Virus genome (UHGV): UHGV-2196677
Source of the DNA: a virus
Direction: 5' to 3' (one strand)
Length of the DNA stretch: 15,349 nt
Of this stretch, positions 5,587 to 13,340 are shown in pieces (positions within the stretch are counted from its first letter, which is position 1; the number at the start of each line of letters is the position of its first letter). Below the pieces are notes generated by a model, which had not been told where the DNA came from, did no database searches, and saw only the letters and a list, made by a program, of their open reading frames with translations. The translations under genes and the position numbers were made by a program.

Positions 5587-5646
5587 ATGTTATTTAAATC
5601 AGGTTTTATGAATTCTGGTACACGATTCAAAACAGGGGGTTACTGA
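5587..5646 (+). CDS. possible 19-codon leader ORF coupled to the first large ORF
   Basis: ATG at 5587 preceded by GGAGGG at 5575-5580 (6-nt spacer). Its TGA (5644-5646) overlaps the ATG of the 843-aa ORF. Peptide MLFKSGFMNSGTRFKTGGY. Confidence 0.2.
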   Translation: MLFKSGFMNSGTRFKTGGY

Positions 5647-8177
5647 TGCCAGTCGTACCAACAGTATCCGGACGCCAGGTTGAGAGCCGTGGAGTTCAGT
5701 CAGCAGGCTTGCAGACGTTTTCTCAGCCAGGTATTGGTGATGCTTTTGTTCGGGCAGGGACAGAGGCAATTGATGTTCTTGGTCAGGCAAAACAGCGCGC
5801 CAATATTGCCTTGGTTCAGGAGGCATCCCTTAAACTCAGTCAGACAGGCAGTGATCTGCTGAATAATCCTGAAACAGGATTGCTTAACCTGAAAGGGAAA
5901 AATGCTATTGGAAAAGGCCATGAGTATACACAGCAGTTTGATGCTCAGATCGAACAACTGGCTATGTCGCTGCCGGATGAACAGGCTCGTAATGCTTTCA
6001 TGCAGCAGGCGCAGCAGCAGCGTATTCAGTTCGCTACGCAGGCCGGGAGGTACGAGATAGGGCAAATAAATGCCTACGAAGAAGGCCAGTTTCAGGCGAC
6101 ACTGCTGAATAATGGTAAAAATGCCTCAGCATTATATGGCGACAACGCAGCATACATATTGGCTAATACGCAAACTTTCCAGCAAATTGAGGATTACGGT
6201 ATTGCGCATGGCTGGAGCGACGAGCAAATCCAGGCCAAGAAAATCGAGTTTAAAGAAGCAACAGCAAAAGCAACTGCTCAAAATGCTATTGGAGCAAACT
6301 ATCTTCAGGTAAGACAGCAAAACGGCGAGTTAAGCGATACTGCTGCTGGATCTCGCCGTGCTGTAGCAGATAGTGGCTCTTCCGATCGTACCCGCGGTAT
6401 ACGCAACAATAACCCCGGCAATCTTGAATACAGCAAAACTAATCCGTGGGTTGGGCAGACTGGTGATGATGGTCGCTTTGCCAAATTCGAAACCCCTGAA
6501 CACGGTATTCGCGCGCTTGGTCGCAATTTGCTGTCGTATCAGCGTCAGGGTTATGACACCATCAGCGAAATAATTAATCGCTGGGCACCGGCCAGTGATG
6601 ATAATAAAACTGATGCTTATATACGGGCAGTATGTGCTCAGCTCGGTGTAACTCCTGACCAGCCGCTTGACGCATCAAATCCTGACACACTGAAATCTCT
6701 GTGCAAAGCAATTATTCATCATGAGCAAGGCAGTCAGCCGTACAGTGATCAGCAATTGGCCGCTGGCGTTAGTGCCGCACTGGGGCTTTCTCAGCTACCG
6801 ACAAAAAATAAACGTTATACCGGTGTAGCTTGGTTCGATGCTTTAAGTGAATCAGATCAGGCCAGCGTGTTGCGACAGACGGATGCATTAGCCAGACAGC
6901 AGCAGGCTGAATATAGAACGATGCTCGAAAGCCGGGTTCGCGATGCAACGGCTGCGTATATGCGTGGCGTTGAATTTCCTAACCCGCCTGGTGAGGGTGA
7001 GTTCATTGCTGCTTATGGTGTCAGAGAAGGAAACCTGCGATATACCGAGTTCAGAAATTTGCAGATCGCCGGACAGTATATAGGCTCTTTCCGCAACATG
7101 CCGACAAGCAGCATTACCGCATATGTTGAGCAATTACGCCCGGATACTGGTGAGACAGGGGAGGGGTATGCGTCTCGTGCGGAGTTATTCGACCGGGTAT
7201 CGGCGGCAGCCACGAAGGTAATAACCCAGAGGCAGAATAATCCGTTTAGTGCAGCGGTGGAAATCGGAGCCTATAAGCCGATCACCAGCAACAACCCTGA
7301 CGACATCACTGCCGAGGTGGCTAACCGTTTCTCGTCGCAGGAAAGCTTACGCGCGTTGGGAATTAATGCCCCAATCCTCAACAGTGAAGAGGCGGCTGCG
7401 CTGGCACAGCAGGTGCGCGGCACTCAGAACGTTGACCAGACAATTAAACTGTTGCAGAGCATGGGGGAGAAGCTGCCTGCGCCAGCAATACGGCAGGTGG
7501 CATCTGTAATTGCTCCGAACAGTGCGGCAACAGCCTATTCTGCGCTGCTGCTGGGCACGCCGGATAATCAGTACGATAACACCAGACCGTCGATCCCATA
7601 TAGTCAGTTCATCGGGTATAAGCCGACGATGAACAAGTACGACGTTGCAAAGGTTATTCTTTCCGGTGACCAACTACTGAATCCGACGAAGGCCATGAAG
7701 AATGCGGGCATAACTCCGGTACAGTTGCCGAGCGAAGATAAGATGAAAGACGCTTTCGACAAACAGGTAGGTAACGCATTTGCCCGTAACCCGCAGTTAC
7801 GTCAGATCAGTTATAGCCTTTTCAAAGCCGCTTACGCAGGAATAGCTTATCAATCAGGTGATGCATCTACGGTAAGAACCAGTATGCCTGATACAGACAC
7901 TGTTGCTGATGCCGTGAAGTATGCTACTGGCGGTATATACAAGGATTTTAATGGCGGCGACGTTGTAATGCCTTTCGGCATGGATAAATCTACTTTCAAA
8001 GATCGCTATACCACATCTGCGAAACAAGCACTGAAAGAAGCCGGACTTAACGTAAATGCAGTGTCAAACTTCACACCAGTTAATATCGGCAATAACCGGT
8101 ATCGGCTGGTAAATGGTAGCGGACGCTGGGCAACAGATCCCAGAACCAATGAAGCTATTGTCGTGAGGGTTGAATAA
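5646..8177 (+). CDS. large uncharacterised protein A (843 aa), Ala/Gln-rich, with a conserved-looking GIRNNNPGNLEY module
   Basis: Long ORF with GGGGG Shine-Dalgarno at 5635-5639. Its TAA shares a TAATG overlap with the next ORF. No P-loop or catalytic motif recognised. The GIRNNNPGNLEY motif is at 6396-6431. Confidence 0.85.
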   Translation: MPVVPTVSGRQVESRGVQSAGLQTFSQPGIGDAFVRAGTEAIDVLGQAKQRANIALVQEASLKLSQTGSDLLNNPETGLLNLKGKNAIGKGHEYTQQFDAQIEQLAMSLPDEQARNAFMQQAQQQRIQFATQAGRYEIGQINAYEEGQFQATLLNNGKNASALYGDNAAYILANTQTFQQIEDYGIAHGWSDEQIQAKKIEFKEATAKATAQNAIGANYLQVRQQNGELSDTAAGSRRAVADSGSSDRTRGIRNNNPGNLEYSKTNPWVGQTGDDGRFAKFETPEHGIRALGRNLLSYQRQGYDTISEIINRWAPASDDNKTDAYIRAVCAQLGVTPDQPLDASNPDTLKSLCKAIIHHEQGSQPYSDQQLAAGVSAALGLSQLPTKNKRYTGVAWFDALSESDQASVLRQTDALARQQQAEYRTMLESRVRDATAAYMRGVEFPNPPGEGEFIAAYGVREGNLRYTEFRNLQIAGQYIGSFRNMPTSSITAYVEQLRPDTGETGEGYASRAELFDRVSAAATKVITQRQNNPFSAAVEIGAYKPITSNNPDDITAEVANRFSSQESLRALGINAPILNSEEAAALAQQVRGTQNVDQTIKLLQSMGEKLPAPAIRQVASVIAPNSAATAYSALLLGTPDNQYDNTRPSIPYSQFIGYKPTMNKYDVAKVILSGDQLLNPTKAMKNAGITPVQLPSEDKMKDAFDKQVGNAFARNPQLRQISYSLFKAAYAGIAYQSGDASTVRTSMPDTDTVADAVKYATGGIYKDFNGGDVVMPFGMDKSTFKDRYTTSAKQALKEAGLNVNAVSNFTPVNIGNNRYRLVNGSGRWATDPRTNEAIVVRVE

Positions 8178-13307: not shown

Positions 13308-13315
13308 CATGTCAC

Positions 13316-13340
13316 AGGCCGCTTTCGCGGCCTTGTTTTT
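13316..13340 (+). terminator. rho-independent terminator closing the large operon
   Basis: Stem AGGCCGC (13316-13322), loop TTTC, stem GCGGCCT (13327-13333), then TGTTTTT. Preceded by the perfect palindrome GTGACATGTCAC (13304-13315), which overlaps the stop codon. Confidence 0.75.

Follow-up and report, generated by a model that had tools for sequence, protein, structure and literature searches.

The 15,349-nucleotide sequence of the virus genome UHGV-2196677 (referred to here, at its full length, as the window) contains an operon of four genes, the three large products of which are identified by full-length homology as internal core and ejection proteins of Uetakeviruses, podoviruses of the epsilon15 type. 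The carrier of this operon is, judged by its size, attachment (att) site, and gene set, a satellite of the Gram-negative phage-inducible chromosomal island (PICI) type, about 19.3 kb in length and of the same kind as the Escherichia coli island EcCIMP1. We regard it as fairly probable that the distal part of a Uetakevirus virion operon (gp15 to gp17 plus a moron) is carried as cargo by this satellite and used for ejection. The findings suggest, without amounting to proof, that the DNA-injection proteins of such satellites may be provided by the satellites themselves.

Identity of the operon-encoded proteins

A reading of the window made from its letters alone (the sequence-only reading) had placed four consecutive genes here, joined by 1-nt stop/start overlaps, each with its own Shine-Dalgarno sequence and together ending at a strong terminator, downstream of replication, ssb, and finO-like genes and between two iteron modules. 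This layout was recovered in every respect. The open reading frames (ORFs) lie exactly where they had been placed (Table 1), the overlaps read TAATG, TAATG, and TGATG, a G-rich, Shine-Dalgarno-like stretch precedes every start, and a terminator-like hairpin follows the last gene. The upstream genes encode a DUF927 primase-helicase, a single-stranded DNA-binding protein (SSB), and a ProQ/FinO protein, and iterons of one repeat type lie on both sides. ORFs this long with full-length homologues are far beyond what chance would produce. The gp15-to-gp17 block, referred to below as the cassette, is set apart from the upstream genes by another hairpin, at 5215-5236, beyond which a new transcription unit begins.

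The three large proteins had initially been described as uncharacterised, a description that no longer applies, as all of them have full-length matches to PHROG families. The 843-amino-acid (aa) protein matches phrog_992 ("head protein"; 1e-289), the 686-aa protein phrog_1145 (5e-137), and the 918-aa protein phrog_684 ("virion structural protein"; 1e-295). Compared with Salmonella phage epsilon15, the first is 79% identical to gp15 and the third 89% identical to gp17 at the amino acid level, both over their full length. The second protein matches epsilon15 gp16 at 84% identity over aa 1 to 277 and at 74% over aa 480 to 686, the central ~200 aa being a nonhomologous replacement. Because of this full-length orthology with epsilon15 and the PHROG families, we identify the three as known Uetakevirus internal core and ejection proteins rather than as a new protein system, and the resemblance to podovirus internal-virion and ejection proteins that the sequence-only reading had noted is thereby explained. 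Distant gp17 homologues in other podoviruses likewise carry the annotation pilot or internal virion protein. In epsilon15, the core exits the capsid and forms a periplasmic tube, and gp15, gp17, and gp16 have been assigned to the injection device (PMC12391199).

Pfam, NCBIfam, and PADLOC returned no hits for the four operon proteins, and the only informative comparisons were those with PHROGs and the DNA and protein BLAST searches against phages. Exact copies of the cassette proteins are found on hundreds of contigs, in E. albertii as well, and are always named "hypothetical protein." Apart from an HExxH motif in the middle protein, no standard catalytic signature had been recognized at first. 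This proved incomplete, as the gp15-like protein contains a peptidoglycan-hydrolase domain, which matches the sequences of two PDB entries (Table 1) and also supported by PHROG endolysin and transglycosylase families.

The operon shares with epsilon15 the gp15-gp16-gp17 order, the overlapping junctions, the small gene and terminator after gp17, and the hydrolase domain of gp15. It differs in its upstream context: in epsilon15 and phiV10, the terminase, portal, capsid, and tail genes and those of the small internal virion proteins gp13 and gp14 precede gp15 to gp17, whereas in the island a satellite replication module takes their place. Moreover, the middle of epsilon15 gp16 has no HExxH domain, whereas that of the island protein has been replaced by one, and the 5' end of the island gp15 gene is of the E. 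coli phage type. Indeed, this gene is a mosaic, with the 5' ~1.5 kb (to ~7172-7180) 85 to 99% identical in nucleotide sequence to E. coli Uetakevirus alleles and the remainder of the epsilon15 type. The cassette DNA as a whole is ~78% identical to epsilon15 genes 15 to 17 and, in parts, 85 to 92% identical to E. coli phiV10-like phages.

The carrier island

The window is a 99.9% match to E. coli 82.0312 (L001) and its relatives. In this strain, the island lies between tRNA-Gly (glyU) and yqeG and encodes, in order, an integrase, a hypothetical protein, AlpA (2.4e-19), AntA/B and BRO-N antirepressors, YlcI/YnfO, an Icd-like protein, DUF4222, DUF927, SSB, ProQ, a frameshifted PerC, a 68-aa ORF, the four operon proteins, and two small ORFs. 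The integrase, AlpA, and primase/replicase genes form one co-oriented unit. Integrase arm-type repeats are located near both island ends, one of them at 14755, and the right end carries an attR (Table 1). The length of the island is within the 10- to 20-kb range expected of Gram-negative PICIs. The two iteron clusters are ~10.7 kb apart, with the entire ssb-to-gp17 segment between them.

That no capsid, portal, terminase, or tail gene is near the operon had been pointed out for the window; the same applies to the whole ~19.3-kb island, in which no lysis genes were found either. The complete virion module of a Uetakevirus (portal, capsid, tail, and gp13/gp14 upstream; tailspike downstream) is present at 12 of the 13 related genomic loci and absent from the island.

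Relationship to known satellites

EcCIMP1 is a 19,963-bp E. coli island that excises only when the podovirus vB_EcoP_Kapi1 is induced and is transduced by Kapi1 (PMC11773190). Pick, Stadel, and Raivio (ISME J 2025) reported that it encodes an integrase, AlpA, an antirepressor, a primase, and PerC and that it contributes to superinfection immunity without a recognizable defense system (PMC11773190). Its backbone is related to that of the island described here (integrase, 66%; AlpA, 78%; AntA/B, 60%; and DUF927, 62% identity), and the two elements have in common a size of ~20 kb, integration at a tRNA gene, and Icd-like, DUF4222, and PerC gene types.

Directly downstream of the EcCIMP1 primase, a small ORF is followed by homologues of P22 gene 14 (phrog_651), gp7, gp20, and gp16. 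The EcCIMP1 authors went no further than to note the similarity of these cassette genes to those of DNA transfer and DUF2824 proteins and to name them as candidates for packaging (PMC11773190). The labels found here are "DNA ejection" for gp7, "released from the phage upon host infection" for gp20, and "DNA transfer protein" for gp16, which has a transglycosylase domain, and by these assignments the EcCIMP1 cargo can be recognized as a complete P22-type ejection module. Only its first ~590 nt resemble Kapi1 (81%), the rest being like other P22-like phages. EcCIMP1 thus has a P22-type cassette and a P22-like helper, whereas the cassette of the island is of the Uetakevirus type; its helper should therefore be a Uetakevirus. 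Two related backbones therefore carry, in one and the same slot, two unrelated ejection systems, both of which are helper-like at the 5' end and heterologous beyond it.

The island also resembles classical Gram-negative PICIs (EcCICFT073 type) and helper-embedded PICIs, in which an integrase-AlpA-primase core is likewise followed, beyond the primase, by late genes of the helper type (PMC10111431). The island differs in that its cargo consists of ejection proteins. No capsid, Rpp, Ppi, or terS-type hijacking or packaging gene was detected in the island with Pfam, PHROG, or NCBIfam. As such a gene is needed for Type A or B, the island would be assigned to "Type C" of the SatelliteFinder scheme, the members of which were left out of account as uncertain PICIs (PMC10085698). 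A related backbone in E. coli KSC64 (L022; NZ_CP018840, 9333-20400) is located inside terL of a lambdoid prophage and carries its own lambdoid protease-capsid fusion gene, a tail-assembly gene, and a DUF1441 gene, which fits the published helper-embedded PICI class (PMC10111431).

With satellite P4, the island shares a P4-type integrase (39%), a Vis/AlpA-like regulator, and an Icd-like gene, and its two separated iteron clusters recall P4 ori and crr. A tblastn search of all P4 proteins against three islands found only the integrase and Vis/AlpA matches. Membership among P4-like elements was ruled out, as Sid, Psu, Delta, and Epsilon are all missing and no similarity between the helicase and P4 alpha could be detected. 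The helpers differ as well, P4 depending on P2, whereas a podovirus is expected here.

The capsids, tails, and terminases that known satellites use come from the helpers, and no satellite has been described as providing the proteins that bring DNA through the cell envelope. In the searchable literature, we found no explicit description of satellites that carry ejection or internal virion proteins. The protein family and the kind of carrier are known; what was not found described are complete ejection operons in satellites, swapped among allelic types.

Conservation and exchange of the cassette

Mobility of the island between sites is evident from E. coli A287 (L005), in which the same architecture occupies a second location, between yicC and dinD. 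The integrase there is unrelated (28% identity) and is accompanied by arm-type repeats of its own, and the 14.6 kb that the two islands have in common, which extend from the regulators to gp17 inclusive, are 97.4% identical. The backbone (at least 80% coverage) was found in 45 of 5426 complete E. coli genomes and the backbone-gp15 junction also in 45 of 5426, two counts that may cover different genomes.

Within backbones that are 98 to 99% identical, three allelic cassette types occur, with sharp exchange boundaries: an epsilon15 type (843/686/918 aa; window and L001), a phiV10 type (837/600/824 aa; strain F11, L021), and an SLT type (873/565/849 aa; strain F719, L023). The L001 and F11 islands are 98 to 99% identical up to window position 7180, ~1.5 kb into gp15, unrelated from there to 13303, and 98.7% identical beyond. 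The terminator of the operon is the right limit of the exchange; phiV10 homology lies at 13303-13361, and 13303-13581 is common to phiV10-like and TL-2011b-like phages. Exchange with real phages is apparent from the F11 cassette, which is 95.4% identical to phage phiV10 over 6.8 kb (proteins, 91%, 98%, and 99%). This near-identity with functional phiV10 genes is an argument for genuine ejection proteins and against degenerate decoys.

The cassette is under purifying selection. All but one of the 37 epsilon15-type island cassettes are uninterrupted, and dN/dS ranged from 0.04 to 0.15 in comparisons with phage copies and from 0.06 to 0.20 between island copies. In gp15, dS is locally raised (0.23 versus 0.01 to 0.02 in neighboring genes), which is a sign of recombination. 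The epsilon15-type cassette is present in 37 of the 45 E. coli islands, whereas as an E. coli prophage this type is rare (~12 genomes) compared with the phiV10 type (310 genomes). E. coli A287 contains both an epsilon15-type island and a complete Uetakevirus prophage of the other, phiV10 allelic type (L105; NZ_CM163380, 1420062-1464344), and the two are a natural candidate helper-satellite pair.

In data restricted to one genome per species, the related loci were ordinary Uetakevirus prophages in 12 of 13 cases. The exception, in Pectobacterium zantedeschiae (L014), has the order Zn-ribbon/Toprim/DUF927 primase, KilA-N, SSB, gp15/16/17, and two AlpA genes. Its gp15, gp16, and gp17 are 49%, 42%, and 73% identical at the amino acid level to those of the island, and apart from this cassette there are no structural genes in 22 kb.

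The HExxH domain of gp16

The HExxH motif that had been noted in the middle protein is HEALH, at aa 355 to 359 (nt 9239-9253), within the low-GC replacement domain of the gp16-like protein (Table 1), and a conserved Glu-Glu pair lies at aa 417 and 418. The pattern H-E-A-x-H-x-E, with Glu-Glu ~60 aa downstream, is invariant in three insert sequences that are 32 to 63% identical. The insert is absent from epsilon15 and from 12 prophage loci and present in a sister island, the Pectobacterium island, and the phage-type contig L020. A protein with a 63% identical insert (P0077) in a phage-type contig, with a T7_gp14-family gene upstream, ruled out that the insert is specific to islands; because the same variant sits in a phage-type contig, the HExxH form of gp16 is not satellite specific.

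Searches with the insert were largely negative. An exhaustive HMMER search of 1.84 billion representatives returned only a 74-aa fragment of the same protein and no outside homologue, and when the insert alone was used in a word-indexed protein search, there were no matches at all, the parent protein included. Pfam gave only subthreshold matches to the putative peptidase families DUF6782 and DUF5700 (E ~0.03). AlphaFold models of the gp16-like protein, one from a single sequence and one with a 25-sequence alignment, had predicted local distance difference test scores of 39 and 45 and were unusable for assigning a fold. From the motif pattern, a candidate metallopeptidase domain in gp16 that is delivered with the DNA is plausible.

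Small ORFs flanking the cassette

Hydropathy indicates two moderately hydrophobic segments in the 104-aa protein (~aa 22 to 38 and 43 to 62), consistent with the small membrane protein predicted by the sequence-only reading. No family hits were obtained for it with Pfam, PHROG, PADLOC, or NCBIfam. In sister islands, the slot after gp17 is occupied by unrelated genes (113 plus 96 aa in L005, 98 aa in L021, and 186 aa in L023), epsilon15 and phiV10 have different small genes there, and an 82% identical homologue follows gp17 in an ordinary Erwinia prophage (L007). The 104-aa gene is therefore best seen as occupying the variable moron slot of the phage operon. As it is swapped for unrelated genes and has a homologue in an ordinary prophage, the protein is not a fixed or dedicated partner or immunity protein, a role for which it had earlier been proposed.

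The 68-aa ORF, which lies immediately before the cassette, is part of the satellite backbone; in the related island L022, the lambdoid capsid gene is preceded by a copy that is 91% identical. The strand-helix-helix pattern of the 68-aa product suggests a ribbon-helix-helix protein. Small ORFs occupy the same position before the cassettes of EcCIMP1 (53 aa; L024 17783-17944, minus strand) and of the Pectobacterium island (65 aa; L014 9787-9984), and these two are clearly homologous to each other despite the P22-type and Uetakevirus-type cassettes that follow them. Found upstream of virion-gene cargo in every related satellite, the small ORF is a candidate regulator of the cargo operon.

Proposed role of the cassette and alternative explanations

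Packaging or ejection by a satellite-like element was one of several roles considered in the sequence-only reading. The homology of gp15 to gp17, together with the lack of morphogenesis genes in the island, makes it the best supported, and we favor it with some confidence. When a Uetakevirus helper enters the lytic cycle, the island would excise and replicate, and the unit from the 68-aa ORF through gp15-gp16-gp17 would be transcribed between the terminators at 5215 and 13316. The island ejection proteins would then be loaded into helper-built procapsids, along with helper gp13, gp14, and portal. During the next infection, they would exit the capsid via the tail, gp15 would cut peptidoglycan, and the gp15-to-gp17 set would form a trans-envelope DNA conduit, as described for the epsilon15 core. 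By analogy, induction and packaging of the island itself would depend on the helper. The cassette would be kept working and be exchanged repeatedly with co-replicating helpers through recombination at the conserved 5' end of gp15 on one side and near the terminator on the other.

Several points weigh against this explanation. Helpers already make their own ejection proteins, so that no need for a satellite copy is evident. Capsid genes borne by classical Gram-negative PICIs are reported to be dispensable for transfer (PMC10111431), and EcCIMP1 is transduced at a very low rate, its authors having proposed a packaging role for the cassette genes (PMC11773190). A word-11 blastn search against three Uetakevirus genomes found only a weak BRO-N match beyond the cassette and no pac-like sequence, and the epsilon15 operator, ATTACC-N(4-6)-GGTAAT, is absent from the island. 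Several island-bearing genomes have no second gp15-like locus and therefore no resident helper. Furthermore, of the relatives of the DUF927 primase in viral contigs, most are without such a cassette.

A more tentative proposal, which we consider possible rather than probable, is that podovirus satellites as a class bring a complete, functional ejection set of their own, usually unlike the allele of the local helper and joined to a helper-compatible 5' end. Satellite particles might thereby inject through a conduit that is not seen by the entry-level exclusion of a helper lysogen, or the satellite might itself impose exclusion. The advantage of carrying an allele unlike that of the local helper would be, hypothetically, either bypass of entry-level exclusion in helper lysogens or interference with the helper. 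Such an advantage is hinted at by the skew in cassette types between islands and prophages, the A287 pairing, and the unexplained immunity conferred by EcCIMP1.

It is also conceivable, but in our judgment unlikely, that the cassette serves interference or exclusion, with heterologous island ejection proteins spoiling Uetakevirus progeny or with the cassette or the small membrane protein blocking the entry of superinfecting DNA. PADLOC gave no hit among 10 island proteins, a result that speaks against the defense or anti-defense system once listed as a candidate and that, under interference, would parallel EcCIMP1, with its immunity but no recognizable defense system. The predominance of the epsilon15 type in islands and its rarity in E. 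coli prophages would fit this explanation, as would the structure of gp15, the 5' end of which is like that of local phages and the remainder heterologous, the same pattern that EcCIMP1 shows relative to Kapi1, and the difference in cassette type between the A287 island and its co-resident prophage. However, the F11 gp16 and gp17 proteins, 98 to 99% identical to functional phiV10 proteins, are a poor fit to a poison variant. All three genes are full length and under purifying selection, hydrolase domain included, which exclusion would not need. In addition, induction of EcCIMP1 leaves helper titers unreduced (PMC11773190), and the small membrane gene is not conserved between islands.

Passive carriage, in which the cassette would be a set of dispensable late genes serving as a region of homology and as an allele reservoir refreshed by recombination with helpers, seems improbable. 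The capsid gene of the helper type that is common in Gram-negative PICIs is not needed for their transfer (PMC10111431), a related backbone has the lambdoid protease-capsid fusion gene in the same slot, and the exchange of cassettes was recent, with sharp boundaries. On the other hand, 7.3 kb, more than a third of the island, is intact in 36 of 37 copies with dN/dS of 0.06 to 0.2 between islands, the cassette has been kept in the Pectobacterium lineage at 42 to 73% protein identity, and the backbone is as frequent as its junction with gp15 (45 genomes each).

We give very little credence to a degraded Uetakevirus prophage of which three structural genes are left. In epsilon15, in phiV10, and in the complete prophages at 12 of 13 loci, full-length homologues are indeed accompanied by capsid and terminase genes, a finding that the sequence-only reading would have taken as the mark of an ordinary prophage fragment, and the BRO-N, PerC, and AlpA gene types of the island also occur in phiV10. 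That conclusion does not follow, however, since the mobile satellite has the cassette as a component that is both conserved and exchangeable. The same architecture is found at two sites, the integrases differ between them and the att or arm repeats are intact at both, one backbone holds three cassette alleles and has a Pectobacterium counterpart, the DUF927/iteron replication module is unlike that of Uetakeviruses, and the homologous EcCIMP1 is a functional satellite. Least credible of all is a toxin-delivery or polymorphic-toxin module with the 104-aa membrane protein as immunity, an earlier candidate to which only the conserved HExxH of gp16 and the adjacent small membrane protein would point, as no hit to a toxin or immunity family was obtained, the small gene varies and is present in ordinary prophages as well, and a phage-type context is known for gp16 with HExxH.

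Other features of the island and its relatives

The features located in the window are listed in Table 1. Coordinates of the right end (past 13463) were corrected for indels, as the window, compared with L001, the closest annotated genome, has a deletion of 11 nt at 13463 and 2 additional nt at 13883. The deletion disrupts a convergent 53-aa ORF downstream of the operon (WP_000708858.1).

Table 1. Features of the satellite island and its ejection cassette located in the window
Feature	Position	Strand	Remarks
Iteron cluster 1	3432-3561	both orientations	TGCGGGTTAT-type repeats, just downstream of primase-helicase gene
Terminator-like hairpin	5215-5236	+	9 pairs, then T run; closes upstream replication/ProQ/PerC unit
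68-aa ORF directly upstream of cassette	5343-5549	+	satellite backbone gene; no Pfam hit
gp15-like gene	5646-8177	+	843 aa
Peptidoglycan-hydrolase domain in gp15-like protein	6390-6854	+	aa 249-403; PDB 9vvp_L Gp29, E=4e-39; endolysin 7q47, E=2e-16
gp16-like gene	8177-10237	+	686 aa
Low-GC replacement/insert domain in gp16-like protein	9008-9613	+	aa 278-479; GC 0.37
gp17-like gene	10237-12993	+	918 aa
Small-protein gene	12993-13307	+	104 aa
Terminator-like hairpin	13316-13333	+	7 pairs, 6 G-C, then T run; ends four-gene operon
Iteron cluster 2	14193-14344	both orientations	same TGCGGGTTAT-type repeat unit, near right island end
attR	14834-14851	+	imperfect direct repeat of tRNA-Gly 3' end (TTCCCTTCGCCCGCTCCAA); right end of island

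The DUF927 protein (window 1283-3409, 708 aa) is without the N-terminal Zn-ribbon/Toprim primase part, its similarity to homologues beginning at ~aa 145; this part is present in the DUF927 homologues of EcCIMP1 (918 aa) and Pectobacterium (917 aa). Its best, subthreshold match in NCBIfam is the SCCmec Cch1 replicative helicase. The PerC-family gene at ~4985-5210 is annotated as frameshifted in all four island copies (L001, L005, L021, and L023) and is intact in EcCIMP1 and phiV10; the shared frameshift could reflect a conserved pseudogene, a programmed frameshift, or an annotation artifact. Overlapping the end of the ProQ gene, a 138-aa ORF (4560-4976) is kept in all island copies. Its C-terminal half matches an anti-repressor Ant PHROG (2e-26), whereas the match of the N-terminal part is to a portion of a "terminase" PHROG (2e-10); a role in helper sensing or packaging is possible.

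At the left edge of the window, the annotated genes encode a YlcI/YnfO-family protein (125-322, minus strand) and an Icd-like cell division inhibitor (528-731). A 238-aa ORF with a TTG start at 15-731 is probably spurious. In strain F11, a ygeQ fragment and an IS3 element come after the island (L021 23067-25424) and resemble what would be left of the ETT2 type III secretion island; the island of strain 82.0312 directly abuts yqeG. The glyU tRNA site appears to have been used by successive mobile elements. In Pectobacterium, a QueC-like gene and a gene for a protein with a nucleoside 2-deoxyribosyltransferase-like domain lie between the primase and the cassette (L014 4772-7367, minus strand), a pair that may be 7-deazaguanine-type DNA modification or defense cargo.

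Implications for podovirus satellites

The gp16 and gp17 proteins of the island are only 27 to 31% identical to those of the common E. coli helper type, and their presence in particles should therefore be readable by mass spectrometry. For EcCIMP1, the ejection cassette provides a concrete candidate for the source of its unexplained superinfection immunity. More generally, at least some of the thousands of "Type C PICIs" that satellite finders have set aside are thereby shown to be coherent elements with recognizable cargo. The carriage of an own ejection set as a means of piracy or counter-exclusion, if true, would be a strategy not described for P4, Staphylococcus aureus pathogenicity islands (SaPIs), PICIs, capsid-forming PICIs (cf-PICIs), or PICI-like elements (PLEs). 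The ejection step is among the least understood parts of podovirus infection. The presence of two unrelated ejection systems in the same slot, intact and swapped with real phages, points to a functional link between podovirus satellites and this step.

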